Under the pieces are notes generated by a model. That model ran no database searches and was not told the DNA's origin. It saw nothing but the letters and a program-made list of their open reading frames with translations. A DNA stretch of 64,000 nucleotides, taken from the sequence record PP886230, one strand, 5' to 3'. The position numbers and the translations under genes were made by a program. This document shows, one piece after another, positions 12,022 to 58,536 of this stretch. The stretch comes from Escherichia phage vB_EcoM_E9.1. The first letter of the stretch is position 1; every line of letters begins with the position of its first letter.

Positions 12022-12099
12022 TACTTGCATTTAGTTTTCAGTACTGTTATAGTACTTGCATCAAGGGGAAACATCTTCCCCTACTAAGAGGAAATAAAA

Positions 12100-12288: not shown

Positions 12289-12315
12289 TATTAATTTAAT
12301 AGAGGATAACAATAA

Positions 12316-12639: not shown

Positions 12640-12722
12640 AAACTATTGACAATGCAACCCAGTACTGTATAATAGTTTACATGAAGGGGAGAAATGATTC
12701 TCCCCACTGAGAGGAAAGAAAA

Positions 12723-12935
12723 ATGCAAGGTCAACTAATCGTTCGTAAATGGTCTGATACTAACGAAAAACCGTGGGATGTACAATACATCGGACCGGAT
12801 GGGGTATCACGTTATCAGCCTGGCGTAACGCATAGTACTGAGCAATATGCCGCCGCTCACCGCGAACGCCTGTTAGAATCCATGAAACAGGGATTCTGTG
12901 AAAAATTCATTCAAGATCATTGGCTGAAAGATTAA
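12723..12935 (+). CDS. hypothetical protein
   Basis: ORF 70 aa with promoter and hairpin. Confidence 0.65.
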   Translation: MQGQLIVRKWSDTNEKPWDVQYIGPDGVSRYQPGVTHSTEQYAAAHRERLLESMKQGFCEKFIQDHWLKD

Positions 12936-12952
12936 TAGAAGGAGTACAGCTT

Positions 12953-13045
12953 ATGCAAATGAATCCGATGATTATTGTTTTAGCTGTACTTATGATCATT
13001 CATGCAATTGTAGAAGTATTAACGCAATCAGGAGTAATAAAATGA
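12953..13045 (+). CDS. putative small membrane peptide (30 aa)
   Basis: SD aaggagt; hydrophobic; first of three overlapping micro-ORFs. Confidence 0.4.
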   Translation: MQMNPMIIVLAVLMIIHAIVEVLTQSGVIK

Positions 13046-13215
13046 TTCAAGTAGAATTATCAGTACTGAAAGATCTGTTTTATCGGTTAGGTACTACTGG
13101 AGAGTATCCTAAAAGTGATACCGCAAAACTTTTTGTATCACTCGACTTATGGCAACGCGAACAATTAGTAATGTCCTGGCGTAAAGGTAAAGCAGATCGC
13201 GAGGTGAAAGCATGA
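13042..13215 (+). CDS. hypothetical small protein (57 aa)
   Basis: ATGA overlap with upstream stop. Confidence 0.4.
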   Translation: MIQVELSVLKDLFYRLGTTGEYPKSDTAKLFVSLDLWQREQLVMSWRKGKADREVKA

Positions 13216-13361
13216 AAGAATTCTTATTCGAAGTAGTGTTTCAAGGTGTCGGTAGTAACCAACTGATTCGCTCAAGTGGTTACAATGTTAACCAGGCATG
13301 GAATAACATTAAACAAATGTACCCGAACGCTATCACCTATCGCAACCCGAAAGAAGTTTAA
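13212..13361 (+). CDS. hypothetical small protein (49 aa)
   Basis: ATGA overlap with upstream stop. Confidence 0.4.
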   Translation: MKEFLFEVVFQGVGSNQLIRSSGYNVNQAWNNIKQMYPNAITYRNPKEV

Positions 13362-13371
13362 AAATATTTGA

Positions 13372-13452
13372 AAAAGGGATTGACTCCGGTCAGTCCCTTT
13401 GCTATTATATACGCATAGAAACAATTCAGCCCACCGGGTGCATAAATGTATC
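13372..13452 (+). repeat. promoter-containing repeat element (REP copy)
   Basis: gggattgactccggtcagtccc..ctattatat then ..cagcccaccgggtgcataaatgtatc; Chi GCTGGTGG at 13451-13458. Confidence 0.6.
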
Positions 13453-13531
13453 TATTATATGCTGGTGGCTAGTACTGAAAACTATTTTTAAAAAGTACTT
13501 GCATTGTATTTAGAATCAAGTATAATGTTTT

Positions 13532-13612
13532 ACATCAGGACGGGGAACGAAACAAGTAACCCCGTTAAGTAGTCCAGGAGTAAGACATACGAAAACCTCC
13601 CCTGATAAAATA
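13532..13612 (+). ncRNA. candidate small RNA (copy 2)
   Basis: Near-identical to 3378-3460; substitutions look compatible with the proposed stems; sits between two promoters. Confidence 0.35.
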
Positions 13613-13674
13613 GTTTGACAATAGAAATTAAACGAGTATAATACTTACATCAACCACTGATAAGGAAACATAAA

Positions 13675-13950
13675 ATGCGGATTCTACTGACAGCTAACGA
13701 AATCGAACAAGTACTGACTACTAACCTGGAAGACTGGAAACGTGAAGCAGATATCCAGGCGGTTCAATGGTTAAATGATAAGTTAACGCCGGATGACTTA
13801 AGCAAGATTGTAGATCCTCAATTCTACGAAGATATCCACGACACCGCGTTAAGCGTCGAGGATGTACTAGATAAGCACTTTATTGATACTGATTTGCAGG
13901 TTTACGGTCGTAAAAACTTTATCACTATTCACGACATTTACAATAATTAA
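13675..13950 (+). CDS. hypothetical protein
   Basis: ORF 91 aa. Confidence 0.65.
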   Translation: MRILLTANEIEQVLTTNLEDWKREADIQAVQWLNDKLTPDDLSKIVDPQFYEDIHDTALSVEDVLDKHFIDTDLQVYGRKNFITIHDIYNN

Positions 13951-14037
13951 GTATTGACAAAGTATCTTAGTACTGTATAATAGTTTACATCAAGCGAGGG
14001 GAATGGTTCCCCTCCTAACTAAAAGAGAGAAATAAAA

Positions 14038-14220
14038 ATGGCTAAGTGCACTATCTGCAAGAAAGAAATAGTATTAGTTCCAAGTGCCCGTGAACGTGCC
14101 GCTCGGTTCGGTGGCAAAGCGTCAGACTATACAAAAATGTTTACTACCCATACAGCTTGCCAGGTAGCAAAACGTTCACAAGAAAGCGTAGAATTAATGC
14201 GTAAACTTTCCAAAAAATAA
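14038..14220 (+). CDS. hypothetical basic protein
   Basis: ORF 60 aa with promoter and hairpin. Confidence 0.6.
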   Translation: MAKCTICKKEIVLVPSARERAARFGGKASDYTKMFTTHTACQVAKRSQESVELMRKLSKK

Positions 14221-14308
14221 GTATTGACAAAGTATCTTAGTACTGTATAATAGTTTACATCAAGTGAGGGGAAACGGTTCCCCTCCTAACAAAGAGAGAG
14301 AAATAAAA

Positions 14309-14632
14309 ATGGCTATGATCCTTGCCCAGAAAGTAGAATTGAAAATTGTAACCTCCTTTGACATTAACGTTAATCGGTGGACTGATTCACACGGCAATAC
14401 TTACCACTCTTGCTACGTGTCTGCGTTAATTGGCGACCGCTGGGAAGACCTGGGACACGAAACCTTTACATACGGTTACGGTACACAAGGCGAATACACG
14501 GGCTTGGAGATCATTAAAGAAACCGTTATAGGTTTCAACCCGAAAGAAAAAGTTATTCACCGCATCGAGGAAGAGATCAACAAAGAAATAACAGTTCGCT
14601 ACCACGATGTAAAACGTAAGAAAGACATGTAA
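14309..14632 (+). CDS. hypothetical protein, paralogue of 7425-7769
   Basis: ATG after leader hairpin; shared DVKRKKD C-terminus. Confidence 0.7.
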   Translation: MAMILAQKVELKIVTSFDINVNRWTDSHGNTYHSCYVSALIGDRWEDLGHETFTYGYGTQGEYTGLEIIKETVIGFNPKEKVIHRIEEEINKEITVRYHDVKRKKDM

Positions 14633-14727
14633 TAGAATCCATTTAAAGTACTATTTGACATTGCCCAGATAGTACTTTATAATAGACTCTAACTTGTAGT
14701 ACTAACTTAACTAATAGGATGTATACC

Positions 14728-15123
14728 ATGATTACTAAATTCTACGCTACCCGTGAAGCTGCCCGTATTGTTGCACGCGAGGAAGGCGAAACATTTAAAG
14801 ACATGGGCAAAGATGCACCGAAAGGTCAACGCTGGGCCGTACAGTTCAAAGAGATCTCTGATATTGTGAATTCACCGGAGCCAGTACTAACAGCAGCAGA
14901 ACTAAAACGAGCGGATTTACTGGCGTCAATACTTGATGCACAAGATGAGTTTATCGCTGATTCTGATATCAAAGTACAGACAAACCACACCGCTTGGACT
15001 CACGCGGATCACCTGGCAAACCTTAAGCGTCCAAGTGAACTGATTCGCAACCAGAAAGAGATCCGACACGACCGTAAGGGTAATCGTGTAACAGTATACA
15101 GTAAACGCCGCCAGGTTATCTAA
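14728..15123 (+). CDS. hypothetical protein, paralogue of 2511-2777
   Basis: SD agga 8 nt upstream of ATG 14728; shared FKDMG and DRKGNRVTVY. Confidence 0.7.
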   Translation: MITKFYATREAARIVAREEGETFKDMGKDAPKGQRWAVQFKEISDIVNSPEPVLTAAELKRADLLASILDAQDEFIADSDIKVQTNHTAWTHADHLANLKRPSELIRNQKEIRHDRKGNRVTVYSKRRQVI

Positions 15124-15145
15124 TAACTTGCAGTACTAACAACAC

Positions 15146-15171
15146 GGCGGGATCAGTTCCCGCCTTTTTTA
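15146..15171 (+). terminator. rho-independent terminator
   Basis: Hairpin ggcgggatcagttcccgcc then TTTTTT. Confidence 0.7.
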
Positions 15172-15184
15172 TAGGACAAACAAA

Positions 15185-15439
15185 ATGATTAAGGTTCAAC
15201 TATATAAAGATAACATCTTACGGGTACACTATAAAGCACCTCAGAGAATCATCACAAAGGCCGTACAGCTTGCTAATGAGTTTATTAATGGTAACCTATT
15301 ACCAAGGAAGTTAAGCAACGGGAAACTGCGTGTAATCGATGTGGACACTAACAACAGAATAGTAATAGAGAACACAGGAAAAATAAACCTATATGAACAC
15401 CAACAATATAATAAGAAAATAAAACTAATATCACGTTGA
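15185..15439 (+). CDS. hypothetical protein
   Basis: ORF 84 aa. Confidence 0.55.
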   Translation: MIKVQLYKDNILRVHYKAPQRIITKAVQLANEFINGNLLPRKLSNGKLRVIDVDTNNRIVIENTGKINLYEHQQYNKKIKLISR

Positions 15440-15492
15440 CAGTACTCAAATGTTTTAGTACTATATGTACATACCAACACGGGGGAAACAAA

Positions 15493-15735
15493 ATGATTAC
15501 TTTAGAAAAACGTATCAAAGAAACTACATCGCTGGTGGAACTGTTAACAGTACTCAAATGTAAAACAACACCATTCAGCACGCCGGACTTTATTAATATG
15601 GTTGATGTTAATGGTCGCTATCGTATCACGGTCGAACAAGGAGCGGCGAAAGTATTCAGTACTAAAAACACGAAGGAAGTGATCCACGCCGTTAATGTTA
15701 AAAAAGTAGTTGCCATTGATAGTAAAGTACTGTAA
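15493..15735 (+). CDS. hypothetical protein
   Basis: ATG after gggggaaacaaa; the track ORF starts upstream at 15436. Confidence 0.55.
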   Translation: MITLEKRIKETTSLVELLTVLKCKTTPFSTPDFINMVDVNGRYRITVEQGAAKVFSTKNTKEVIHAVNVKKVVAIDSKVL

Positions 15736-15766
15736 GATAGTTACATTAACTCAAGGAGAACATGCA

Positions 15767-16351
15767 ATGCGTAATTATACTAAATTCATCCGTACACTGT
15801 CAGAAATGGAAACCAACAAAGAGATCCTTTCAGCTTGTCGGTTAGCTGGCCTGGAGATCATCGGTGCTGGTTCTTCCCGTATAGTATTCGCTTTAAATGA
15901 TCGGTTAGTGATTAAGGTCGCGAATTGTGATGCGGGTGTAGAACAAAATGAAACTGAATGTAAGGTATGGAATTTTTTAGACTATGACCGCCCTCAGTTG
16001 AAACAGTACTTTGCAAAGGTGCATATGCATTTATGCGATCCTGATAATATGTTTATCGTTATGGATCGGTTGAGTACTGCAAGCAAAGGCAGCGTAAAGC
16101 ACGTTAACGCGTGCAACGAATTAAAGTATAATATTAAACGTAATGCCATTGAACGCCAGCACCGCTTTGCTGATGCACTACAACACGTTGATGATACATT
16201 ATCAACACTAACGATAAGAGATATCAGAAAACAGAATATCGGCCAGGATCGTAATGGACTTATTAAAGTACTTGATTACGGTTTAACCCGCAATATCTGG
16301 AATCAGTACTATAAAAAGCGTGATGTAGAAGCAAGTAAGGTAACACGATAA
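15767..16351 (+). CDS. minimal protein-kinase-like protein (putative Ser/Thr kinase)
   Basis: Gly-rich loop IGAGSSRIVF, VIKV lysine, IRDIRKQNIG resembling HRDLKPENI, and DYG in place of DFG; SD aaggaga 6 nt upstream. Confidence 0.55.
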   Translation: MRNYTKFIRTLSEMETNKEILSACRLAGLEIIGAGSSRIVFALNDRLVIKVANCDAGVEQNETECKVWNFLDYDRPQLKQYFAKVHMHLCDPDNMFIVMDRLSTASKGSVKHVNACNELKYNIKRNAIERQHRFADALQHVDDTLSTLTIRDIRKQNIGQDRNGLIKVLDYGLTRNIWNQYYKKRDVEASKVTR

Positions 16352-16360
16352 AAAAAGATT

Positions 16361-16465
16361 AAAAAAGGGATTGACTCCGGTCAGTCCCTTTGCTATTATA
16401 TATTCATTGAGAGATAACTCACTGACCCATAGGGTGCGGAAGTGTATCTATTATATAAGTATTCA
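16361..16465 (+). repeat. promoter-containing repeat element (REP copy)
   Basis: gggattgactccggtcagtccc..ctattatat then ..cactgacccatagggtgcggaagtgtatc. Confidence 0.6.
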
Positions 16466-16573
16466 GTACTGAAAACTATTTTTAAAAAGTACTTGCATTG
16501 TACTTAGAATCAAGTATAATGTTTTATATCGAGAGGGGAAATGGTTCTCCCTCAAAGAACAAGGAATAAAATC

Positions 16574-16795
16574 ATGACTACAATGACTTGCATTCACGCT
16601 TCAAACCTGCTTAATGATGCGGCCTTTAATGTTGAAACAGAATATCAATGTTATCGGGATGAAAATAAAAAAGTTTTTGTAGTTGATAATAATGGTTTCC
16701 ATATTGAATTGCAATCCGGCTTCACTGGCGTTGATGGTAAATCAGTATGGGGCGTACAGGATGATAAAGGCACATATCATTTTAAACGTAATTAA
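16574..16795 (+). CDS. hypothetical protein
   Basis: ATG after SD aaggaat; the track ORF from 16541 starts in the leader hairpin. Confidence 0.65.
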   Translation: MTTMTCIHASNLLNDAAFNVETEYQCYRDENKKVFVVDNNGFHIELQSGFTGVDGKSVWGVQDDKGTYHFKRN

Positions 16796-16881
16796 GTATT
16801 GACAAAGTATATCAGTACTGTATAATAGTTTACATCAAGGGGAGAATAGTTCTCCCCACACCAATAAAAGGAAACATAATT

Positions 16882-17154
16882 ATGTCTAGCTACTCCGCTA
16901 CTATGATCATTAAAGATATGAACGGTAATCCTACTTCTGCTGGTGGATCATTTGGAAACATTAATTTAGATGGTCGGTTATCCATGCAATCAGCAATCGA
17001 TGCAGCGAAAGAAGTTTTTAAGAATGAATGTACTGTTAGTAAGCTGGATTATATGGGATTTGCTATCGAAAAAACTAATCGTTTTGTGGACTACAAAAAA
17101 CCACTGATGATTGATACTAACCTGAAAGCAAACGAAGTGGAGTACTTATTATGA
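16882..17154 (+). CDS. hypothetical protein
   Basis: ORF 90 aa with promoter and hairpin. Confidence 0.65.
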   Translation: MSSYSATMIIKDMNGNPTSAGGSFGNINLDGRLSMQSAIDAAKEVFKNECTVSKLDYMGFAIEKTNRFVDYKKPLMIDTNLKANEVEYLL

Positions 17155-17342
17155 CAGTTGAAGAAGTAAAAAAAGTACTGGCAGTACTACGCTATCATAA
17201 TCATTGTAAGGTGAAGAATGATCCTGATTATCTTGATTCATCCCTGGAAGAGGATACACTACAAGCAATAAGCCATATGCAAAAAATGCTTAAGCGTATG
17301 ACCGAAAAGAACAGGCCAGACTATATCGGAAATAAAATTTAA
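17151..17342 (+). CDS. hypothetical protein
   Basis: ORF 63 aa, ATGA overlap. Confidence 0.55.
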   Translation: MTVEEVKKVLAVLRYHNHCKVKNDPDYLDSSLEEDTLQAISHMQKMLKRMTEKNRPDYIGNKI

Positions 17343-17428
17343 AAAGTACTTGCATTGTAGTTAGATTAACGTATAATGTTTTACATAGAGCGGGGGAATA
17401 GTTCTCCCGCCAGTCCAGGAGATACACC

Positions 17429-17692
17429 ATGAACACTATCGAAATCACTATCAATGCACACGTATACGACAACGTAGTACTGCAAACTACTATGACCGCT
17501 AATGATACCAGTACTTTGCGGAATACTGTTATTAGTGCCGTATGTGCCGCTATCGGTGATGTCGCCCTGGAAAATGCAAAACACGTAAACGATGGTTTCA
17601 CTATGTGCAAACGTGATAACGCAAAACATATCATCGTGGAAGGTTACGGCGGTGTAGAATTTAATGTTTATATGAAAAAAGTACTTGCATAA
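17429..17692 (+). CDS. hypothetical protein
   Basis: ORF 87 aa with promoter, hairpin and SD. Confidence 0.65.
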   Translation: MNTIEITINAHVYDNVVLQTTMTANDTSTLRNTVISAVCAAIGDVALENAKHVNDGFTMCKRDNAKHIIVEGYGGVEFNVYMKKVLA

Positions 17693-17759
17693 TAACTAAA
17701 ACAAAGTATAATGTTTTGCATAGGGGGAGATATCCTCCCCCACTAAAAGGAGTACTAAA

Positions 17760-17984
17760 ATGGCTAACTTTGATGAACTGATGCGGGAAGTAGCTAACCT
17801 GGCAGAAGAGAAGAAATCATTCGATTCTATCTATAACACCGCTCATCGTGATTCAGTACTGGCATGTAACCAGGATCAAAAAGATGAACTAATCGCCACC
17901 TATCATGAAGCATGGAAGTACTACCGACAATGGGAGAAAGAAGAAAGCGAGTCTACCATCAACGGCATCAATAATCTAATCTAA
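17760..17984 (+). CDS. hypothetical protein
   Basis: ORF 74 aa with promoter and hairpin. Confidence 0.65.
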   Translation: MANFDELMREVANLAEEKKSFDSIYNTAHRDSVLACNQDQKDELIATYHEAWKYYRQWEKEESESTINGINNLI

Positions 17985-18060
17985 AAGTTTTATTTCAGTA
18001 CTATTGACATAGCTTGATAGTACTGATGTAATAACTTTACTAACTACAAGGGGAAACATA

Positions 18061-18318
18061 ATGGAACAGTTCACACAATATCGGGTAAATCCTCAAGCTA
18101 TGGCCTACGTAGAAGACCATAAAACGTTACCAGTACTGCAACCAGTTAAAGGCCATATCTATCGTGCAATGTCGTGGTGTGCGGCCCAGGATGGCTATAA
18201 AACCGTAGCCGTGGGTATGTACTGCGGTAATGGTGAATGGTTTGATCCAAATAATCCGGTAGCCATTGACAGTACTGAAAAAATGAAATGGGCCGACTAC
18301 ATCGAAGATATTTCATAA
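18061..18318 (+). CDS. hypothetical protein
   Basis: ORF 85 aa. Confidence 0.65.
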   Translation: MEQFTQYRVNPQAMAYVEDHKTLPVLQPVKGHIYRAMSWCAAQDGYKTVAVGMYCGNGEWFDPNNPVAIDSTEKMKWADYIEDIS

Positions 18319-18408
18319 AAACTATTTGACAGTACTAACCAGTAATGTATAATGTTTTACATAGAGCGGGGGAATAGTTCTCCCGCCAATAGTTTGGAGT
18401 TAAACATT

Positions 18409-18609
18409 ATGTCTATCGCTATCTCCCTGGTTGAAGTACTGAAAGAAGCTAAAGCCAACCAGATCGACGTAAAGATCCAGGAACTACAAAACGGCTTAAT
18501 CGGCTGTACTTGTACCGCTGGTGGAGCGGCAGACTATCGAGAACACGAATCACTCGAATCACTGGTTCGGTATCTTTCCATGATCGTTGATGATTGGAGA
18601 ATCATCTAA
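18409..18609 (+). CDS. hypothetical protein
   Basis: ATG after the hairpin; the track ORF from 18352 starts in the promoter. Confidence 0.6.
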   Translation: MSIAISLVEVLKEAKANQIDVKIQELQNGLIGCTCTAGGAADYREHESLESLVRYLSMIVDDWRII

Positions 18610-18621
18610 CAAAAAAGAATA

Positions 18622-18705
18622 AAAAAGGGATTGACTCCGGTCAGTCCCTTTGCTATTATATACGCATAGACAAAAACTAGCCCACAGGGTGCATAGGTGT
18701 ATCCA
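18622..18705 (+). repeat. promoter-containing repeat element (REP copy)
   Basis: gggattgactccggtcagtccc..ctattatat then ..ctagcccacagggtgcataggtgtatc; Chi at 18739-18746 just downstream. Confidence 0.6.
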
Positions 18706-18853
18706 AAATATATAGTTAATAACGGTGAGTAACTATCTGCTGGTGGAACTAAAACTATTAATAAAAAAGTATTGACAAAGTATATCAGTACTGCGATAAT
18801 GTATCTCGTAGGGCGGCAATGGTGCGACGGCCCACAAAGTTAGGAGATTCAAA

Positions 18854-19186
18854 ATGACTACTTCAATCGCTATCGTTAAAGCTTTCATCCGTACTAATGT
18901 TTCCTCTGTATTCATCGACGGCCTCGACCGTAACGTAGAATACTCAATCATTATCGCACAAACGGCAAACGGTTCTCGGTACATCCTGAATGATAGTGAA
19001 GCAAATCACTACTACTTCACTAAAGCCACTGGCTTTAAACGCATCGATGCTGATGTAGTATACGCTAAGATGAATAAGCTGGTAGATAAGATTAACGCTA
19101 AAGGTACTATAGATTTACAGTACTGGACCGAAACCGATCCAGAGTATGGATCTCACCGCTACCTGAATCCAGGTATCAAAATGTAA
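18854..19186 (+). CDS. hypothetical protein
   Basis: ORF 110 aa; TTGACA promoter near 18772 with a long structured leader. Confidence 0.7.
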   Translation: MTTSIAIVKAFIRTNVSSVFIDGLDRNVEYSIIIAQTANGSRYILNDSEANHYYFTKATGFKRIDADVVYAKMNKLVDKINAKGTIDLQYWTETDPEYGSHRYLNPGIKM

Positions 19187-19275
19187 AAAGTACTTGCATA
19201 GTACTTAGATTCATGTATAATGTTTTACATAGAGAGGGGGAAATGGTTCTCCCTCCTAAATTAAGGAGTTTTATC

Positions 19276-19677
19276 ATGACCTTCTCAATCAATTCCTTCG
19301 CTGACGTTTTAGTACTGGCCCGGACTTTTGGTAAAGATGCACTGGAGTACGCTGTAAGTAATGGCACTATCCAACCGGAACAGTGCCGCATCATTGGAAA
19401 CTGCAAACGTTGGGCGGTATCCAATACTATTGCACTGGAAAACTTCCACGATGGCAACAATGAATATTCTGTTGATGTAGTATTCGAAGCCGTTGATCTC
19501 GGCGGTATCTATAATACTAACCTGAATGATGTGCGTATCGTTCGCACGGGGTTCGGTGCTTATGATGTATCTATCCGTGAAGCTATGAACACCGGATACA
19601 TTAGCAAGGACTTACTTGCTCACATCATGCAGCTGTGTACGGAACGTAACGAAGCACGTACTATCTTAGGGCTGTAA
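19276..19677 (+). CDS. hypothetical protein
   Basis: ATG after SD taaggagt; the track ORF from 19213 starts in the promoter. Confidence 0.7.
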   Translation: MTFSINSFADVLVLARTFGKDALEYAVSNGTIQPEQCRIIGNCKRWAVSNTIALENFHDGNNEYSVDVVFEAVDLGGIYNTNLNDVRIVRTGFGAYDVSIREAMNTGYISKDLLAHIMQLCTERNEARTILGL

Positions 19678-19745
19678 GCAATACACATCACCAAACATCA
19701 TAGGCCGCTCTCTAGCGGCCTTAACTATATCAGGAGTACATACAT

Positions 19746-19955
19746 ATGTTCTATACAGTATACAGCGTTCTAGGCACTATTGCAGGCGTACATGATAACG
19801 TCAATGATGCTATGCGTACAGTACTGCAACAGGTTCCACTAAAGCCTAAGACCATTAAGCAGATGACAGCACGACTAACCAGGGCGACGGCTGGCGTGGA
19901 AGTATGGCAGGACTATGGGGATACACAGATAATCGTAAGCGTAACGAAGGATTAA
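19746..19955 (+). CDS. hypothetical protein
   Basis: ORF 69 aa, SD caggagt. Confidence 0.6.
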   Translation: MFYTVYSVLGTIAGVHDNVNDAMRTVLQQVPLKPKTIKQMTARLTRATAGVEVWQDYGDTQIIVSVTKD

Positions 19956-19959
19956 TGCG

Positions 19960-20200
19960 TAAAGGGATTTAGTACTGATTCAGAAAAAAGTCAAGGCGTT
20001 TTTAAAATTATGCGTTAAAAAAATGCATAGGTAATCCCTTGACTTTTTTGAAATAAAAGGGATTGGACTATGGCAAAATGCGTAGGGGGCTAAAGGGCGG
20101 GTAACCTTAGCGACTTCGATAAAGGGGTATTACGAATAAAATGTTATTGATTTTTTATACGAATCGTATATTATAGGATTGATATTATTTTTAATGGAGT
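19960..20200. promoter_or_regulatory. non-coding junction with inverted repeats (aaaaagtcaagg / ccttgactttttt; aaagggatt x3) at the transition to AT-rich DNA
   Basis: Inverted repeats read directly; base composition changes here. Confidence 0.45.
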
Positions 20201-20204
20201 CCCT

Positions 20205-20402
20205 ATGCGTATTTTAACTAAAGAACAGCACCACGAAAGACTTATCAATAACATGGCTATGATAATGTATAAGTCCCATGACCATGGTATTGCCTATAAG
20301 CGTGAATTAATTATGGCACTATTCATTGGAACTAACTTTCAGGAAAGGTATGTCAACGATTGGATTTGGTATTTAATTGAAGATATAACGAGTAAACTAT
20401 GA
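20205..20402 (+). CDS. family A paralogue (about 70 aa, LGTNYQE-type motif)
   Basis: Motif FIGTNFQERYV. Confidence 0.65.
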   Translation: MRILTKEQHHERLINNMAMIMYKSHDHGIAYKRELIMALFIGTNFQERYVNDWIWYLIEDITSKL

Positions 20403-20599
20403 AAATGCGTATTTTAAATAAAGAAGAATATCAATCACTGTTACGTAAAAACTTCACAAAGATTTATAATACAGACACACACGTAGAACGAATGGAGTTA
20501 TACCTTTTGATTACTTTGGGAACTAACTATCAGGAAAGATGGGTGATTCAATATATGGATACATTGAAAAATAAAATATTGTCCACGAGGAAACAATGA
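20399..20599 (+). CDS. family A paralogue
   Basis: ATGA overlap; motif TLGTNYQERWV. Confidence 0.65.
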   Translation: MKMRILNKEEYQSLLRKNFTKIYNTDTHVERMELYLLITLGTNYQERWVIQYMDTLKNKILSTRKQ

Positions 20600-20805
20600 A
20601 AACTATAACACGAACCCAATCATACGGTCTTATCTTGAAATACATGGACTTAATGGTGGATATCAGCAAAGACCTTCCTAAAACTGAAATTGAAGTTGCA
20701 AGAGCAGAGATCCGCATGTTGGCTGTACTGAACACAAACCATCAGGAAGAGTATGTTGACGATTGGATTCGATTTTTAATAGAAGATATTAAGAGTAAAC
20801 TATGA
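20596..20805 (+). CDS. family A paralogue
   Basis: ATGA overlap; motif VLNTNHQEEYV. Confidence 0.65.
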   Translation: MKTITRTQSYGLILKYMDLMVDISKDLPKTEIEVARAEIRMLAVLNTNHQEEYVDDWIRFLIEDIKSKL

Positions 20806-21017
20806 TTATTATAGAAAACTCATATCAATATACTGAACGCATCGCTGCCAGACAACTTGAAATCCTCATAATATACGAAGAGACTTCTGATTTAAACTTA
20901 GCCGAGGTATTGGAAAATGATATACTATTGGGTGCATTCTTAGGAACAGACTATCAGAAGTATTATGAGGAAAAGTATTTGTCATCTCTTGAGAAATATA
21001 TCAGGAGCAAATTATGA
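20802..21017 (+). CDS. family A paralogue
   Basis: ATGA overlap; motif FLGTDYQKYYE. Confidence 0.65.
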   Translation: MIIIENSYQYTERIAARQLEILIIYEETSDLNLAEVLENDILLGAFLGTDYQKYYEEKYLSSLEKYIRSKL

Positions 21018-21226
21018 TTTTTTTAACACCAGAAGAATATAAGAAACGTTTCAATTCCGCACAGGGTGAAATCTTACTTATATACCTTTCAAATGCAGAC
21101 CTTAACTTATCAAGGGTATTAGAAAAAGATTTACTTATGGGTGCATTCCTTGATACAGACTTTCAGGTGTATTATGTAGGGGAATACTTAATTGCACTTC
21201 AGAATTATATCAGGAGTAAACTATGA
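21014..21226 (+). CDS. family A paralogue
   Basis: ATGA overlap; motif FLDTDFQVYYV. Confidence 0.65.
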   Translation: MIFLTPEEYKKRFNSAQGEILLIYLSNADLNLSRVLEKDLLMGAFLDTDFQVYYVGEYLIALQNYIRSKL

Positions 21227-21441
21227 AACATTTAAGTAATTACGAGAAGAATAAAATTATCGTTGCTGCAATAAACAAATATTTTACACTTCCTCACACA
21301 GAAGGTTTATGTGTAAGGGAACACAGGATAAACACCACCGATATACGCATGATGGCTGTACTGGGGACGAACTTTCAGGAAGAGTATGTTGTTGCACACA
21401 TAGTTGCCCTCACTGATCTAATAAGGGACAAATGTAAATGA
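21223..21441 (+). CDS. family A paralogue
   Basis: ATGA overlap; motif VLGTNFQEEYV. Confidence 0.65.
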   Translation: MKHLSNYEKNKIIVAAINKYFTLPHTEGLCVREHRINTTDIRMMAVLGTNFQEEYVVAHIVALTDLIRDKCK

Positions 21442-21695
21442 AACACTTAACTGATGATGAATTTGAAACTATAATTCGTAAACTAACCCCCATCACAAGG
21501 ATAGTCTACGGTGACCCCAGCCTTACATGGAACCAAATGCGAGCTAAAGTTAATGAGCTATGGTTGCTGTACTTTATGGGGACTCAATATCAAGATAAGT
21601 TTTGCACAGAATATATCGAACAATTAACGAATGTTATACAGGATAAACTAGATGATTATTTGCTCACAAAACATGAAGACTTTATCAGGAGTTGA
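21438..21695 (+). CDS. family A paralogue with C-terminal read-through
   Basis: Motif FMGTQYQDKF; the usual KL-stop/ATGA junction is disrupted near 21645. Confidence 0.6.
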   Translation: MKHLTDDEFETIIRKLTPITRIVYGDPSLTWNQMRAKVNELWLLYFMGTQYQDKFCTEYIEQLTNVIQDKLDDYLLTKHEDFIRS

Positions 21696-21924
21696 GTATC
21701 AAACTGCCCTATTCTCTTTAATCCATACCCTTAGAAAAAACAATGCCTTACATGGTGCACCTGAAGTGGATGTTATCAACGGTGAACTTTATCTTATGAA
21801 ATTCATTGGAACAAACTATCAAGATCTGTTCATTCAACGATACTTATCCGCATTAAGAAACCAAATCCAATATAAAACCATCAAGGCCAAAAAAGAATGG
21901 AATAAACAATGCGACAAAGACTAA
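21652..21924 (+). CDS. family A paralogue (start uncertain, 21652 or 21673)
   Basis: Motif FIGTNYQDLFI. Confidence 0.6.
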   Translation: MIICSQNMKTLSGVEYQTALFSLIHTLRKNNALHGAPEVDVINGELYLMKFIGTNYQDLFIQRYLSALRNQIQYKTIKAKKEWNKQCDKD

Positions 21925-22160
21925 ATCACAAAATGTATTGTAAACTATTGCAGACACTGGCACAGAAACACTATGACACTGTATCTGAAATATTACCCTA
22001 TGATATCATGCGTTTAATTCATAGTGAGGCAGAGATGCTTGTACTGATGACAGGCACTGATAAAAAAGCAATTGCCAAATCAATAGATATGTTCATCGAA
22101 GCACAATGTCAACACATTAGAACCGAGATATGGAGACGAGAGAATGATAACACTAAATGA
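21909..22160 (+). CDS. family A paralogue (divergent)
   Basis: Degenerate motif LMTGTDKKAI at the usual position. Confidence 0.5.
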   Translation: MRQRLNHKMYCKLLQTLAQKHYDTVSEILPYDIMRLIHSEAEMLVLMTGTDKKAIAKSIDMFIEAQCQHIRTEIWRRENDNTK

Positions 22161-22359
22161 GTTTCAGTATCATTGGAGGTTACAAACTATCAAATCAAAA
22201 GTGTATAGTATTGTGTTAAACAAATCTATTGCACAAGAGGACAAATGTGTTATAATAGCTGAAATGAAGTTGGGTGCTTTCGTAGGGACAAACTATCAAA
22301 ACATCTACACTGACGTATTGTTAAGTGCCTTACGTAACAAGGTGGTATCCAAAATATGA
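22144..22359 (+). CDS. family A paralogue
   Basis: Motif FVGTNYQNIY. Confidence 0.65.
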   Translation: MITLNEFQYHWRLQTIKSKVYSIVLNKSIAQEDKCVIIAEMKLGAFVGTNYQNIYTDVLLSALRNKVVSKI

Positions 22360-22574
22360 GAAATTTACAAGGCTTTGAATACATCAGACTCCTGAAAACA
22401 TGCACCAGCAGAAGGAAAATCTTATCAAGCGATAAGAGCATCCAAGCTAACTTTAAGCACGCACTAGTAACTGAACTCTATGTAGGTGCACTCTTAGGCA
22501 CAAATTATCAACAAATGTATGTAGATCTATGGATTGACGCTCTACAGAAAGAGGTTAAAAGTAAATGCAAATGA
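22356..22574 (+). CDS. family A paralogue
   Basis: ATGA overlap; motif LLGTNYQQMYV. Confidence 0.65.
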   Translation: MRNLQGFEYIRLLKTCTSRRKILSSDKSIQANFKHALVTELYVGALLGTNYQQMYVDLWIDALQKEVKSKCK

Positions 22575-27724: not shown

Positions 27725-28082
27725 AAAAGTAATATTTCTTTTGAATACCAGAAGTGAATTGTATACAGAGTTAAAAGAGATTAATGCATTTTATCAGAAT
27801 TTTGTAATCCAAGAGATCAGTGATTTAATTACAGATGCATTATTTGAATTATCGGAGAAATACAAAGGTTCAGAGTTCAGTGTTAAGAATGTTATTCGTC
27901 CAAGTGCAAGGAAAATTATATTATCACATTTTACATTTGACAATAAAGATTTATTCAGTCATAATCCAAGTACAGCTTTATATTTTATTCCTGATTCAGA
28001 CAAAAATCATCCTATTCATTACGGATGGATTTTGTCATATATAGTACAAGGAAAGGAGTATCCTATTAAATGGAAAGATTAG
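27690..28082 (+). CDS. hypothetical protein
   Basis: ORF 130 aa, neither family motif. Confidence 0.55.
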   Translation: MNMNPEIVQDLKKVIFLLNTRSELYTELKEINAFYQNFVIQEISDLITDALFELSEKYKGSEFSVKNVIRPSARKIILSHFTFDNKDLFSHNPSTALYFIPDSDKNHPIHYGWILSYIVQGKEYPIKWKD

Positions 28083-28230
28083 GGCGATTAGATTATTACA
28101 CAATTAATACAAATTATTTGTTGCGTAATATAAAATCCGATTACAAAATATGGATAAAGAACAGAGATAGCATGTGTTATGAATTTTATTTAGATTATGC
28201 TATCAAACGATTTTTAAGAGAAGAACATTA

Positions 28231-48622: not shown

Positions 48623-49128
48623 GTTTATTAAATGCACGCGAATTAGTTGAGATGTATGAGATTTTGTCTTCATATAAAAATTCTCATGGAGATGTGATTC
48701 TCGACAAAAAGTTCCATGTCAGTGTTGAACATATATCAAATATAGATATGATTTCTTTGGTGGAAAGTAATAAGTCAGGTCTTGAACGCGATATCATGCG
48801 TTTGATTTATATTCCCAAACCATCATATACTAATGATAGTTCAATTAGTAATGAGACATTCATGTATAGTCCTGGTACGGATTCTACTATAGTATCGCTG
48901 TCCAATAAATCAATGGGTACTTTCCAATTCATCTATACCAGTACTGATAACATTGAAGAAATTGAATTTCAAAACAATACATTAAGTCCATGTAGTAGTG
49001 TTATAACCTTTATGTCATATCTATGGTCAACTAAAACAAGTGCTGTTGTATATAGTTCAAATTATACACAAGATAGTATTGTTGAATCATATAAAGTTCT
49101 AAAGGAATACTATGAAAATAACAAATGA
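48619..49128 (+). CDS. family B paralogue (divergent)
   Basis: Motif EEIEFQNNTLS; ATGA overlap. Confidence 0.6.
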   Translation: MSLLNARELVEMYEILSSYKNSHGDVILDKKFHVSVEHISNIDMISLVESNKSGLERDIMRLIYIPKPSYTNDSSISNETFMYSPGTDSTIVSLSNKSMGTFQFIYTSTDNIEEIEFQNNTLSPCSSVITFMSYLWSTKTSAVVYSSNYTQDSIVESYKVLKEYYENNK

Positions 49129-56457: not shown

Positions 56458-57312
56458 ATGAAACTTTATCTAATCGTTGACTACAATAAGGATTATGCTG
56501 GTAACTTCACCGAAGATTCGGATGGATATTGCACATCGACTAATGTCAATGTACGTATCAGTAATGCTCATGAACATGAATCTTGTAAAAATCTAAAAGA
56601 TTTTATCACATACCGAGCATTTGAAAAGAACTTCTGCCGCAGTAGATATTCGAAGTTTGAGTACCCGTTAATTGATGTTCCTGATGATTTAATGTTCCAG
56701 TTAATGCTAACTGGAGTTCAAGATTATGATTACATAGCATATAATCATATTACTAAGAAAATTTATATTGGTACATCATCACATGACACTTCTATGTATG
56801 CATCATGCCCAGATGATCGAATGAATGATAGAAAATCATACTATAGTGGATCAGTTGGTTTAAATGATTCATTAAATGAAAATTTATTCTTTGAGTATGT
56901 TTATGATTACCATCATGAGAAAAAAGAACGTGAAGATTACTGTATAGCAATTGATAGTACTAATGGGTATGAAGACGTGAAAGAAGCACTTATGCCGTAC
57001 ATTATTGAAAAGTACTACAAAGATTTTCAGTACTGTAGTAATTTTCTAATCAGAAATTCTATTATAATCGGTCGCCAATCTAGTGCATACTCTCAGTACT
57101 ATAATGATTCACCAGTAGCATCGGCAAATGAAATGTGTGATATTTTACAAATTCCACGTGAAGATATGGCATTCATTTTTACATCTTTTATTGAAGATGA
57201 TGAGTTGTATATTAAAAATAAACACCGTTTCATGCCAAGCAAGATTGAGGTTATTCGAAGTTTTAGTGTTGATATACTAACAAATTTCACAGAAAAAACC
57301 GAATATAACTGA
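56458..57312 (+). CDS. hypothetical protein (284 aa) with two family-B-like motifs
   Basis: DDLMFQLMLTGVQDYD and ENLFFEYVYDY; ATG after the terminator (track ORF from 56425 overlaps it). Confidence 0.65.
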   Translation: MKLYLIVDYNKDYAGNFTEDSDGYCTSTNVNVRISNAHEHESCKNLKDFITYRAFEKNFCRSRYSKFEYPLIDVPDDLMFQLMLTGVQDYDYIAYNHITKKIYIGTSSHDTSMYASCPDDRMNDRKSYYSGSVGLNDSLNENLFFEYVYDYHHEKKEREDYCIAIDSTNGYEDVKEALMPYIIEKYYKDFQYCSNFLIRNSIIIGRQSSAYSQYYNDSPVASANEMCDILQIPREDMAFIFTSFIEDDELYIKNKHRFMPSKIEVIRSFSVDILTNFTEKTEYN

Positions 57313-57341
57313 GACAAATGATAAGTTAATGATATAATATA

Positions 57342-57377
57342 AGGTGACAACATAATATGTTAGTCACCTTTTTTTAA
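57342..57377 (+). terminator. rho-independent terminator
   Basis: Hairpin aggtgacaacataatatgttagtcacct then TTTTTTT. Confidence 0.7.
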
Positions 57378-57990
57378 TCCTGAAAGGTTCCCATAAGGAA
57401 ATGATTAAAAGCCTAATCCACTCGAAAATGTAGAGGGTAGATGAGTAGTCCTTTCAGTACGAACAGCAGATGAAACCCGTTAGATGATGGCATAGTTTGA
57501 ACCACTCACGGCAATGCGGCTGTATAAAGAACTCCAATAGGATAAAGAGAGTTCCTCGATAGACATATAAGGATCGCACCTTACCAATTATCTAAGGGAG
57601 ATTTCATAAGAAATATGCGGTCGGAATTATACAATATAGTTGCGTCCAAATTTTGTGAAATCAAATACAAGTACTGGTCATATGGTATTTGTATTATGTG
57701 TCGGGATGTTTAAGACCGACGACCGTTGCTACAAGAACCGCGATAGAGAGAAACAGAGCAACCCGCTTTCGTCTCGTAAGAGAATTCGTGATATGAACTA
57801 TGTGAAGGCCACCAGCGTCAAACTTTTTTGTTCTTTCCCCTGCGGGGGGATGAAATATGCTCAAGCAAACCCCGTCAATATTAATTAAAAGAAAATAGTA
57901 CTTGTAGAATTAGACATGCGTAGCATGGTAATTCTACTGATGTTGATGAAATCAACGTCACGTATATTCATTGATGTTTCCATAGGAATA

Positions 57991-58536
57991 ATGATGGCAT
58001 TTATTAGAAAACAAAAAACTTTTACCTATAAGACTTTGGATTTTGTTGATTGTGAAAACCAATTACAAGATGAAGATAACTTTACAGGATTTGTTGTTAT
58101 TAAAGAAAAAGGATGCATTTCTTACATAAAGGAATTACAGAACGGCATTGAAGTTACTTCAGTCAAATTACTTCCTACACAAAAACCAACAATATTAAAA
58201 GCACAGTATGGTAATTATTTCGAGGAAAGATATAGTAATAATTTAATAAGTGTTAAGGCTTATATTATAAAAGGAGAACTAGAAGGAGAATATAGAAAAT
58301 ACAACCCACAAGGAAAATGTGTTTGGGTTAAATACTTCAATTCAGGAAATGATGTAACATCTGAAATAATTGAGTTTTTAGGTTTAACATGTACCCCTGA
58401 AACTCTTCATGATTACAAATTTAATACTGAAGAAGAGTTTAATCTGATGATGCGTTATGGTTCACATTTTAAATTTTTGTATGAATATAACATTGACAGT
58501 AGTACTTTTGATAAGATAGTACAGAACTGTCTATAA
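57991..58536 (+). CDS. hypothetical protein (start uncertain: 57916, 57991 or 57994)
   Basis: ORF; SD aggaa before the ATGATG pair at 57991. Confidence 0.55.
   Translation: MMAFIRKQKTFTYKTLDFVDCENQLQDEDNFTGFVVIKEKGCISYIKELQNGIEVTSVKLLPTQKPTILKAQYGNYFEERYSNNLISVKAYIIKGELEGEYRKYNPQGKCVWVKYFNSGNDVTSEIIEFLGLTCTPETLHDYKFNTEEEFNLMMRYGSHFKFLYEYNIDSSTFDKIVQNCL

Follow-up and report, generated by a model that had tools for sequence, protein, structure and literature searches.

An apparently undescribed family of large structured RNAs in Rak2/121Q-like jumbo phages and small enterobacterial chromosomal islands

What is encoded by a 678-nt non-coding gap in the genome of an Asteriusvirus (121Q/PBECO4-like) jumbo phage? 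The gap lies at positions 57313-57990 of the window, by which we mean the whole 64,000-nt stretch of Escherichia phage vB_EcoM_E9.1 (PP886230) analyzed here, and the window is 100% identical to Escherichia phages ECO103 4-12-1 and EC22.5-2 of the genus Asteriusvirus. A sequence-only reading had described a GC-rich island of about 540 bp within AT-rich DNA, and the composition bears this out: the GC fraction of 57378-57915 is 0.401, compared with 0.342 for the whole window and 0.29 to 0.31 for the flanks, a value distinct from those flanks yet only at the 90th percentile among windows of the same size. Its described placement between a terminator and the next gene is also correct, with a hairpin and U-run at 57341-57375 to the left and a gene starting at about 57994 to the right. 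The start of this gene is placed there rather than at 57916, as the PHROG match spans residues 17 to 206 of the longer open reading frame (ORF) and the annotation of phage G17 has the same start; a Shine-Dalgarno sequence, AGGA, is at 57984-87.

The gap contains a self-contained unit (57310-57937, somewhat larger than the first-reported interval, 57378-57915) with a promoter, an RNA core of about 500 nt, and a terminal mini-hairpin (Table 1). Comparative analysis shows this unit to be a stand-alone gene, with predicted rightward transcription from its own promoter to give a non-coding RNA of about 0.5 to 0.6 kb. A repeat search finds no further copies within the 64-kb window, and the paralogues are elsewhere in the genome.

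TABLE 1 Features of the RNA unit and its immediate surroundings, in window coordinates
Feature	Position	Strand	Remarks
RNA-gene promoter	57310..57338	+	-35-like TGAGAC at 57310-15, 17-nt spacer, extended -10 TGATATAAT at 57330-38
Leader hairpin AAGGTGAC/GTCACCTT and U-run	57341..57375	+	Upstream gene's terminator, downstream of RNA promoter
Structured RNA core, ~500 nt	57380..57877	+	Conserved; profile matches and covariation
Helix P-a	57380-87/57450-57	+	RNA core
Hairpin with GAAAAUGUA loop	57418-37	+	RNA core
Invariant GAUGAG	57440-45	+	RNA core
Helix P-b	57463-67/57519-23	+	RNA core
Helix P-c	57477-80/57508-11	+	RNA core; encloses hairpin with CAUAGUUUGAA loop
P-d	57529-54	+	RNA core
P-e	57568-83	+	RNA core
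UAAGGGAG	57593-600	+	RNA core
Module M, conserved loop UACAAUAUAGUUGCGUCC	57630-47	+	RNA core
82-aa ORF, not a gene	57640..57888	+	ORF list only; not conserved
P-f	57664-95	+	RNA core
P-g	57700-20	+	RNA core
GACCGU	57721-26	+	RNA core
Helix P-h	57739-43/57786-90	+	RNA core
P-i, closing invariant loop AAACAGAGCAACCCG	57746-70	+	RNA core
GUAA hairpin	57772-83	+	RNA core
C/G hairpin	57836-49	+	RNA core
CAAACCCCGUCA	57866-77	+	RNA core
Terminal stem-loop	57904..57937	+	Outer stem GTAGAATTA/TAATTCTAC; inner mini-hairpin
Inner mini-hairpin CATGC-GTA-GCATG, C-GNA-G triloop	57915-27	+	Within terminal stem-loop
Next protein gene, 121Q gp416 homologue, phrog_16210	57994..58536	+	Right-hand limit of element, outside it; G17 annotation

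The RNA stretch is the part of the locus that aligns to phages of other genera, where it is mostly unannotated, and it is among the few DNA stretches alignable between genera at all. In phage, metagenome, and bacterial loci, a profile built from paralogues and orthologues of the RNA core gives 103 full-length nhmmer matches (E values from 1e-60 to 1e-138), which reduce to 66 copies when made non-redundant at 97% identity. The score of the window copy is 459.6 bits (E 3.6e-138), and this copy has the other hallmarks of the family, including the covarying fold, a TGRRAY-N17-TATAAT promoter with the TG extension, and the C-GNA-G hairpin. The proposal of a structured non-coding RNA is upheld by the 66 to 75% DNA identity across phage genera, extensive compensatory changes, and a strand-specific excess of G·U pairs.

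The complementarity that had first drawn attention (ctgaaagg with cctttcag) is a covarying helix, P-a, replaced in homologues by CTGAATGA/TCATTCAG, CTGTTTGA/TCAAACAG, and others, with changes on both sides in seven of its eight pairs. Helices were derived from anchor-delimited segments of the alignment, and the consensus fold has 78 pairs, 96.5% of them canonical and 49 with compensatory changes; none of 500 shuffles scores as high, and slid controls are only 34 to 45% canonical. Canonical pairing is 95.1% over the 66 non-redundant copies, RNAalifold reports compensatory changes in 38 of 66 pairs, and G·U exceeds A·C at paired positions by 221 to 16. The fold comprises 18 or more helices, arranged about some 100 core nucleotides that are invariant and for the most part unpaired, with peripheral modules that are swapped between copies, such as two alternative inserts 3' of GUUAG and module M, which is at one of two positions. 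A candidate closing helix (GAUGAG/CGUCA) is invariant on both sides, and no covariation can be read from it. Folding of the single sequence is uninformative (z = -1.5 for the + strand and 0.0 for the - strand), and the structure emerges only by comparison. Several further ideas were dropped after inspection by eye revealed no covariation or pattern match: that the module M and P-f loops form a kissing interaction, that P-e contains an SD/anti-SD mimic, that GAUGAG is a C/D box or k-turn, that the ACCCGC loop pairs with the G-run hairpin, and that the RNA 3' end resembles the ColE1 origin sequence.

Could the region instead hold a small or decayed protein gene, or an RNA of a known class (group I or II intron, tmRNA, RNase P RNA, or tRNA-like)? 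There is an 82-aa ORF in the window copy, some GenBank records have two to seven 'hypothetical proteins' annotated across the RNA region, and a minus-strand ORF in the gap has a weak PHROG match (E 0.0019). However, the 82-aa ORF, which had already been judged unconvincing, has no PHROG family, is interrupted by stops in all frames in 31 of the 31 other aligned copies, and in 23 of these has a length difference that is not divisible by 3. Its variable columns are spread over the codon positions as 41/45/41, with neither codon periodicity nor a third-position excess, and PHROG and Pfam searches of the gap ORFs give nothing meaningful. The suggestion of a decayed gene is thus rejected, there being no conserved ORF and no codon periodicity. 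As to RNA classes, ARAGORN finds no tRNA genes and no tmRNA in the window, in keeping with the earlier failure to recognize a cloverleaf, and cmscan with the 4,227 families of Rfam 15 gives no match on the element when the whole window is searched at the gathering threshold. At E ≤ 10 there is likewise nothing on the window copy, six other phage loci, or the E. coli island copy, the sole Rfam matches being chance or terminator-like and in the flanks. An intron-like or tmRNA-like element, also suggested earlier, does not fit, since neither Rfam nor ARAGORN has a match and the element lies between genes with its own promoter. Group I introns fail on the same intergenic position and promoter, with no covariance-model match even at E ≤ 10, and RNase P RNA, 6S, GOLLD, ROOL, OLE, raiA, and HEARO models are without matches at that threshold. 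A coding gene or known class is therefore barely credible. A literature search, sequence strings included, found no description of this RNA, and with no Rfam, tRNA/tmRNA, or literature match the family is, on these comparisons, previously undescribed.

The Rak2/121Q-like jumbo phage genomes searched have four to five matching places each. Phage 121Q has four diverged copies located at ~90.3, 192.8, 247.5, and 326.7 kb, dispersed and all on the + strand, and three to four copies are located in each of BF, CBB, Yen9-04, and two metagenomic genomes; these too are diverged and scattered, and all lie on one strand in a given genome. The order of terminator, element, hypothetical gene, Dam methylase, and cytidylyltransferase is kept in 121Q, GAP32, and CBB. 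This position upstream of a gene block (gp416 and Dam methylase), and the promoter-proximal terminator-like hairpin of A-type copies, would suit a cis-regulatory leader of the downstream genes, such as a riboswitch-like element, an attenuator, or a processive-antitermination RNA. We consider this very improbable, as the downstream genes differ from copy to copy, 121Q copy D sits between two minus-strand genes, and the RNA, at about 500 nt, is far above known leader sizes; moreover, the unit has its own final stem-loop, followed in many other copies by a separate promoter for the next gene.

The -35-like box overlaps the stop codon of the upstream gene, and transcription is predicted to start at about 57344-46. 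The 64-kb window has a single match to TGRRAY-N14-TGnTATAAT (0.01 expected), and a consensus promoter scan recovers the same site with TG preceding the -10. An extended -10 of the TGnTATAAT type is upstream of every copy with available upstream sequence, and a TGRRAY -35 is present in most. In 121Q there are 14 sites with the promoter pattern, all on the + strand; three precede RNA copies, and the others precede genes for SSB, primase, exonuclease, and a late sigma factor. In CBB and GAP32, this promoter class has been named 'divergent RpoD-like', with a -35 of TGAAACG (PMC5259590). We infer that it is of the middle class, as in T4-type R-loop origins. The leader hairpin carries a terminator annotation (ARNold) in phage G17, and a simple terminator scan misses it because its loop is >8 nt. 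All A-type orthologues have this hairpin, with compensatory changes, and the order of promoter, hairpin, U-run, and RNA is kept; since the hairpin lies 3' of the RNA promoter, it would either form the RNA's 5' leader or work as an attenuator.

The terminal stem-loop is likely the 3' end of the unit, acting as an RNA 3' hairpin, a single-stranded DNA (ssDNA) signal on the RNA-like strand, or both. A perfect C-GNA-G hairpin (stem of at least 5 bp) is present within 200 nt downstream in 37 of 63 non-redundant copies, phage and island alike. Only six C-GNA-G hairpins are on the + strand of a 350-kb 121Q-equivalent genome, and five of these lie 33 to 60 nt past the four RNA cores. The motif ACGWAGTGA is not enriched genome-wide, and the relevant feature is the C-GNA-G triloop hairpin. 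Such hairpins are classic ssDNA structures, and d(GCGAAGC) mini-hairpins are present at the origins of ssDNA phages.

The RNA, with the same promoter type and C-GNA-G hairpin, is also found in integrase-bearing, low-GC islands of 8 to 11 kb in the chromosomes of Escherichia, Citrobacter, Serratia, and Enterobacter, with core genes on either side. Full-length homologues are present in Serratia, Citrobacter, Enterobacter, Silvania, and Buttiauxella, and in two of 5,426 E. coli genomes. The island of E. coli LR-29-1 measures 10,678 bp, with 24-nt direct repeats as its boundaries at the 3' end of ffs, and related layouts are present in eight other genomes. Island genes include an integrase, a CI-like repressor, a Ner-like protein, a membrane protein, and cargo genes. 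Among the island ORFs examined, several of which are without a Pfam match, none was recognized as a replication or packaging gene, and no structural gene was identified in the LR-29-1 island. With its integrase, att direct repeats, and small size, the LR-29-1 island thus has the traits of a satellite. Only one cargo protein has a phage homologue, and, apart from the promoter-RNA-hairpin unit, no long DNA similarity was found between the jumbo phages and the islands. The island RNAs nest among the phage paralogue types, with 80 to 85% identity to particular phage copies, compared with 66 to 80% among paralogues within one phage. A distant-mode blastn search with an island copy matches none of 72,556 plasmids, so the unit is not an autonomous ColE1-like replicon. 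The multi-copy family, the dedicated promoter and terminal hairpin, and the presence in bacterial islands all lay beyond the view of the sequence-only reading.

A unit that is multi-copy, flanked by promoter and stem-loop motifs, and common to mobile islands, with hairpins of an ssDNA type, might be a repeat or mobile cassette working at the DNA level (a module for recombination or shuffling, a MITE-like element, or a regulatory cassette) in which the hairpins act as DNA and the RNA is functionless. This is very improbable, as no terminal inverted repeats or target duplications stood out, the copies are syntenic across genera (121Q, GAP32, and CBB) and the long-range nested helices and G·U excess indicate a single folded strand; given the dedicated promoter, an RNA is the simplest reading.

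The occurrence of the RNA in both phages and islands points to an undescribed RNA-based step in the propagation of these elements. Our leading reading, held tentatively and by analogy, sees in the unit a 'portable origin', a replication module that is primed by RNA and acts in cis. Its structured transcript, synthesized when replication takes place, would stay on its template and/or recruit replisome factors and be processed into a leading-strand primer, with the GNA mini-hairpin on the displaced RNA-like strand providing a loading or priming signal. Several dispersed copies could then serve the 350-kb genome, and islands with no identified replication gene would carry one copy and be replicated by an infecting jumbo phage. 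Consistent with this are the promoter class, common to replication genes, the near exclusivity of the C-GNA-G hairpin to the RNA units, and the sharing of the unit by phages and islands lacking an identified replication or packaging gene. Against it, about 100 invariant unpaired nucleotides and swapped modules are the mark of RNAs with a precise three-dimensional fold (ribozymes and ribonucleoproteins [RNPs]), the fold is far more elaborate than in known origin transcripts, and origins usually evolve fast. Also, none of the 72,556 plasmids carries the unit, no obvious AT-rich unwinding element or iterons stood out beside the copies, and the extended -10, being close to consensus, would be expected to fire in island carriers that are not infected, which is awkward for an R-loop origin; that all copies are on the majority gene strand is weak evidence. 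The transcribed region is GC-richer than the genome (0.40 versus 0.34).

Almost as likely is a trans-acting 'ornate' RNA, i.e., a ribozyme, an RNP subunit, a self-assembling scaffold like GOLLD, ROOL, and OLE, or a decoy or sponge for a conserved host factor, with paralogues providing dosage or sub-functions and the islands' own copy exploiting or jamming the same process. Junction nucleotides that do not vary, helices that covary, and peripheral modules that can be interchanged argue for this, alignability between genera suggests a very conserved partner, and its own promoter and a terminal hairpin are a typical RNA-gene layout, in which a strong extended -10 could drive constitutive expression in island carriers. 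There is also a precedent in PA5oct, a distant jumbo-phage relative of the Rak2/121Q clade, which expresses RNA-seq-defined lncRNAs (ncRNA001-004, 236 to 619 nt, + strand, two of them very abundant; PMC7318152). However, there is no Rfam match, and the PA5oct lncRNAs have no detectable similarity by eye or with the nhmmer profile and were set aside as relatives. A trans-acting RNA leaves unexplained why islands with no protein homologue conserved with the phages have their own copy, why the copies lie scattered at conserved positions instead of in a cluster, and why there is an ssDNA-type mini-hairpin; the label also pools several mechanisms, each less likely singly.

The portable origin has precedents, with likeness by analogy of mechanism and not by membership. 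ColE1 needs only the ~555-nt RNA II, and each of T4 ori(uvsY) and ori(34) combines a middle promoter with an R-loop transcript, such that plasmids with them replicate on infection. Both kinds of module act in cis, do without an initiator encoded by the element, and can bring about the replication of foreign DNA. The unit here resembles RNA II in having a non-coding transcript of about 0.5 kb with a promoter just upstream, and resembles the T4 origins in its inferred middle-class promoter and in the presence of several per phage genome. Unlike ColE1, it has no sequence similarity to any of the plasmids searched, and its fold is more elaborate and more deeply conserved. The bacteriophage phi29 pRNA is a structured, phage-encoded RNA in propagation machinery that acts in trans on the packaging motor, but it is single-copy and ~170 nt, compared with a multi-copy ~500-nt core here, and there is no similarity. 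Likeness to GOLLD, ROOL, and OLE, often phage- or prophage-borne, lies in the large size (0.5 to 0.8 kb), intricate fold, and strong covariation, and these RNAs are described in one source as forming RNA-only assemblies (PMC12286853). The family here differs in having no covariance-model match to them, Enterobacterales jumbo-phage hosts, four to five diverged paralogue places per genome, and copies in integrative islands.

The islands themselves resemble PICMI and the jumbo-phage-transduced I55 islands, which are integrase-bearing, have few genes, and depend on large virulent phages (PMC10803314; PMC12595487). The enterobacterial islands are likewise small and integrase-bearing with few genes, and may likewise depend on a helper. 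They differ in that PICMIs encode their own primase and I55-type islands are 20 to 70 kb and from Pseudomonas; a shared structured RNA is reported for neither. A bolder idea, which we regard as doubtful, is that the unit is a protein-free, RNA-centered 'licence to be propagated' for Rak2-like jumbo phages, either a primer/origin RNA or a cis-required RNA particle, copied by a previously unrecognized class of minimal satellites of the Enterobacteriaceae so that the phages replicate and spread them. If so, it would amount to a replication or hijacking module of a novel type, and the islands would be the first satellites of the Rak2-like phage clade.

Large, intricately folded RNAs without an assigned function are seldom found, and new biology has come from every such class. 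The present family ranks with the most conserved DNA segments across genera of 350-kb phages used in phage-therapy research, has several diverged paralogues per genome under a promoter class common to replication genes, and is carried, together with that promoter and the terminal hairpin, by small chromosomal islands. It offers a testable handle on the start of replication in Rak2-like jumbo phages and on the exploitation of jumbo phages by satellite-like islands. The RNA loci are unannotated or misannotated as 'hypothetical proteins', with five or six spurious ORFs placed on the region in some GenBank records, and gene callers should mask them. We note that the loose motif AGAAAYNGNNNNACCCGCTT gives mostly chance matches in IMG/VR, plus extra true loci.

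The GC-rich stretch at 57378-57915 that the sequence-only reading singled out is almost certainly a member of a family of structured non-coding RNA genes, with a core of ~500 nt (hereafter the RNA), and its sequence is as that reading described. Its GC content (0.401) does exceed those of the window (0.342) and the immediate flanks (0.29 to 0.31), but the enrichment is local and, taken across the window, stands at no more than the 90th percentile. The region is 100% identical in the Escherichia phages ECO103 4-12-1 and EC22.5-2 and 99 to 99.9% identical in 121Q, G17, phAPEC6, Sharanji, and others, these relatives being 350-kb jumbo phages of the genus Asteriusvirus. In G17, the best-annotated relative, no feature is annotated from the predicted terminator to the next coding sequence. 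The start of the next gene is most likely 57994 (or 57991) and not 57916, the long open reading frame (ORF) at 57916-58536 probably being over-extended, because the G17 annotation, an AGGA Shine-Dalgarno sequence, and a PHROG match beginning at residue 17 of the longer ORF all point to the later start; with the upstream gene stopping at 57312, the non-coding gap is therefore 678 nt. Several deposited genomes (e.g., PQ390715, PQ330092, OR699282, and PV611058) have two to seven 'hypothetical proteins' called over the RNA locus, and 121Q g516 is an annotated 51-aa minus-strand gene inside one of the four 121Q copies (copy C). A minus-strand ORF at the locus has a weak PHROG match (phrog_37483; E 0.0019), which raises the possibility that the RNA locus has given rise to spurious protein families.

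An alignment of 32 distinct copies has long invariant blocks, and between them hairpins with compensatory changes in their arms; RNAalifold predicts 66 pairs, with double changes in 38. Adding one hairpin and the long-range helix P-a, which the sequence-only reading had noticed as complementarity, gives a covariation-supported structure of 78 pairs in 18 helices. Standard pairs fill 96.5% of the paired cells, compared with 80.8% after shuffling and 34 to 45% when the 3' partners are slid by one to three columns; the corresponding values are 49, 31.4, and 13 to 22 for pairs changed on both sides and 0.448, 0.168, and 0.056 to 0.095 for the covariation score, and none of 500 shuffles attained any observed value. 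G·U greatly outnumbers A·C in paired positions (221 versus 16), and the folded strand is thus the plus strand. In a set of 66 copies made non-redundant at 97% identity, the 78 pairs remain 95.1% canonical, with at least three pair types seen at 43 of them. The covarying helices and the G·U excess bear out the structured RNA that was one of the original suggestions. A decayed gene, another of them, is not borne out: the 82-aa ORF, already judged unconvincing, is broken by stops in all frames in all 31 other aligned copies and by indels that are not multiples of three in 23 of these, lacks codon periodicity, and has no homologue family in PHROG.

Copies differ in their peripheral elements. What follows GUUAG is a short hairpin with a CAUAGUUUGUA loop in some copies and a longer insert in others, and a hairpin module with a conserved 17- to 18-nt loop, UACAAUAUAGAUCCGUC, is found at either of two positions (columns ~325-365 and ~505-535 of A2, the alignment of RNA copies). 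The combination of invariant junctions, covarying stems, and interchangeable peripheral modules is what RNAs of defined three-dimensional architecture typically show. The UACAAUAUAGAUCCGUC-loop module occupies both positions in 121Q copy C and neither in copy D, and in many copies the loop includes a palindrome, UUGUACAA, that could in principle mediate dimerization. A strongly covarying 3-bp helix, G-N-A/U-N'-C (A2 columns 98-100/111-113; UA 14, AU 12, CG 6), directly brackets the 3' strand of P-a; since the two are sterically hard to combine, they may represent alternative conformations or a junction resembling a pseudoknot. In about half of the copies a terminator-like hairpin with a U-run lies inside the RNA (A2 columns 585-612), ~45 nt upstream of the invariant CCCCUGCGGGGGG hairpin. 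It is missing from the window copy; were it to act as a terminator, transcription of the highly conserved distal segment would be reduced.

With sensitive blastn, window ~57407-57900 aligns at 66 to 75% identity to jumbo phages of other genera, including Mimasvirus GAP32 and CBB; Eneladusvirus BF, fHe-Yen9-04, and Erwinia phages; Salmonella phages Munch and 7t3; and phages annotated as infecting Klebsiella and Xanthomonas. Each of these genomes has four to five matching places, mostly unannotated. IMG/VR motif scans followed by an nhmmer profile recovered ~40 phage copies, and in every genome with several located copies these are dispersed and on the same strand, as in Serratia phage BF (about 30, 174, 259, and 335 kb). 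The four 121Q copies each lie within an unannotated 600- to 800-bp gap, and copy A shares its surroundings with GAP32 and CBB, in the order terminator, element, hypothetical gene, Dam methylase, and cytidylyltransferase.

No Rfam 15 family matches any RNA copy tested, and the suggested tmRNA-like or intron-like element found no Rfam family at curated thresholds or at E<=10; the window also has no detected tRNA or tmRNA, in keeping with the lack of a recognizable cloverleaf. A full-text literature search, including sequence strings, returned no description of the RNA. The wider clade has a single RNA-seq study, on the distantly related Pseudomonas jumbo phage PA5oct, which reported four lncRNAs, two of them highly expressed (PMC7318152); these lncRNAs (genome pieces L140-L142) have no detectable similarity to the RNA. 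For these reasons we treat it as a new RNA family, akin either to large ornate phage RNAs or to RNA-primed origins.

A TGnTATAAT-type extended -10 lies upstream of every copy with available upstream sequence, in most cases with a TG(A/G)(A/G)A(C/T) -35 placed 17 nt upstream of it. The pattern TGRRAY-N14-TGnTATAAT occurs at 14 sites in 121Q, all on the plus strand; three are upstream of RNA copies and the others precede genes for SSB, primase, exonuclease, and the late sigma factor, among others. By its motif, the predicted RNA promoter belongs to the 'divergent RpoD-like' class, which is known from CBB and GAP32, where it is enriched upstream of DNA-synthesis genes (PMC5259590). It presumably acts as a middle promoter, and the sites constitute a candidate middle-promoter regulon that includes the RNA genes. 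In copy A and its orthologues, including the window copy, the terminator hairpin of the upstream gene sits between promoter and RNA and is kept with compensatory changes. Within 200 nt downstream, a perfect C-GNA-G triloop mini-hairpin is present in 37 of 63 copies, and of six such hairpins on the plus strand of the 121Q-equivalent 350-kb genome, five are located 33 to 60 nt past the four RNA cores. Mini-hairpins of the d(GCGAAGC) type are exceptionally stable single-stranded DNA (ssDNA) structures and have been noted at ssDNA phage origins.

Positions of the RNA, its associated elements, and its copies (L008 and L010, pieces of the 121Q genome; L310, the E. coli LR-29-1 locus)
Feature	Sequence	Position	Strand	Remarks
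Predicted RNA promoter	Window	57310-38	+	Sole occurrence of pattern; 0.01 expected
Upstream gene's terminator hairpin	Window	57341-75
RNA core	Window	57380-57877	+
P-a	Window	57380-87/57450-57
3-bp helix	Window	57445-47/57458-60
UACAAUAUAGAUCCGUC-loop module	Window	57616-57655
82-aa ORF	Window	57640-57888	+
Mini-hairpin CATGC-GTA-GCATG	Window	57915-27	+	Nested in longer stem 57904-37
Shine-Dalgarno, next gene	Window	57984-87
Copy A	121Q	192.8 kb	+	Window copy
Copy B	121Q	90.3 kb	+	Directly after sigma-factor gene
Copy C	121Q	247.5 kb	+	Between structural gene g515 and g517
Copy D	121Q	326.7 kb	+	Minus-strand genes on both sides
C-GNA-G hairpins	121Q	90816, 90842, 248078, 327194
Promoter-class sites	121Q	5263, 15293, 21683, 27380, 44765, 101439, 202713, 206597, 258185, 277198, 321899	+
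Internal terminator-like hairpin, copy C	L008	~48960-49000
Internal terminator-like hairpin, copy D	L010	~28080-28110
DUF4326 homologue	L008	32088-32405		Near gene 497
E. coli LR-29-1 island	L310 (NZ_AP027515.1)	11842-22543		10,678 bp; perfect 24-nt direct repeats overlapping ffs 3' end
Repeated motifs	L310	16960-17030		3' of island RNA
Cargo trio	L310	18997-20728

A two-block motif scan of GTDB genomes and metagenomes, followed by a profile search, identified full-length homologues (E 1e-78 to 1e-97) in the chromosomes of Serratia fonticola (complete genome), a second Serratia strain, Citrobacter amalonaticus, Enterobacter chinensis, Silvania, Buttiauxella, and other Enterobacteriaceae, and in 2 of 5426 complete E. 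coli genomes. Every RNA-bearing island has a GC content of 0.30 to 0.38, compared with 0.55 to 0.6 in adjoining core genes. The E. coli LR-29-1 island and eight further loci are integrative elements of 8 to 11 kb with one unit (promoter, core, and C-GNA-G hairpin) each; that of Serratia fonticola adjoins tilS and a duplicated gene, which we take to be rof. A tyrosine integrase or large serine recombinase is usually followed by the RNA with the same promoter type, and beyond it most islands have a CI-like repressor facing a Ner-like protein, a membrane protein, and a small secreted protein. The E. coli island is without the CI/Ner pair, and cargo is variable (e.g., mSLOG-DUF4326, DUF488, and DuOB). 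No gene for replication, packaging, or virion structure was identified among those island ORFs that were examined, of which several lack a Pfam match, and only one cargo protein has a 121Q homologue. The island RNAs preserve the fold, with 93.8% canonical pairs and with compensatory changes from the window copy at 33 pairs, and they retain the C-GNA-G hairpin. By sequence they fall within particular paralogue types of the phages: identity is 81 to 85% between one group and the copies of a 349-kb contig from a metagenome, and 80.5% between the E. coli copy and the phage BF copy at 174 kb, compared with only 66 to 80% between the paralogues of any one phage. Judging from these sequences, the islands are probably minimal satellites of Rak2-like jumbo phages. 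In this they resemble PICMI and jumbo-phage-transduced islands, for which, in contrast to the RNA in these islands and phages, no RNA common to the helper is reported (PMC10803314; PMC12595487). We found no description of the RNA's link to satellite-like islands in the literature searched.

The unit is an independently promoted (by a predicted promoter), non-coding, highly structured RNA, present in multiple copies in the phages and copied by integrative islands. We propose tentatively, at somewhat less than an even chance, that it is a cis-acting, RNA-primed replication module (origin or primer). This is consistent with the presence, in a 350-kb T4-related genome, of several copies that are dispersed, on one strand, and conserved in position, with a promoter class common to replication genes, as at T4 ori(uvsY) and ori(34), and with exactly this unit being carried by islands that have no identified replication gene; an R-loop at the unit would displace the strand bearing the ssDNA-type hairpin. 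A folded transcript of ~550 nt can alone constitute an origin, as in ColE1. We note, however, that unpaired nucleotides are highly conserved, that no obvious unwinding element was noticed next to the copies, that blastn of an island copy gave no match to the unit among 72,556 plasmids, and that the promoter should fire in the absence of phage too. The architecture and deep conservation are best fitted by a trans-acting ornate RNA, whether an RNP subunit, a ribozyme, a self-assembling scaffold like GOLLD/ROOL, or a decoy for a conserved host factor, which all together we consider almost as likely as the replication module, and which would account less directly for the island copies and the associated hairpin. 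The two readings are close, and we slightly prefer the replication module because this single mechanism covers most of the separate observations. A cis-regulatory leader, a DNA-only cassette, a pseudogene, and known RNA classes are minor or rejected alternatives.

The mSLOG-DUF4326, DUF488, and DuOB cargo trio of the E. coli island has domains tied to biological-conflict systems, and the 121Q homologue of its DUF4326 protein is 41% identical. The same island has repeated ATCGATCGTT / AACGATCGGT motifs, which are operator- or iteron-like.
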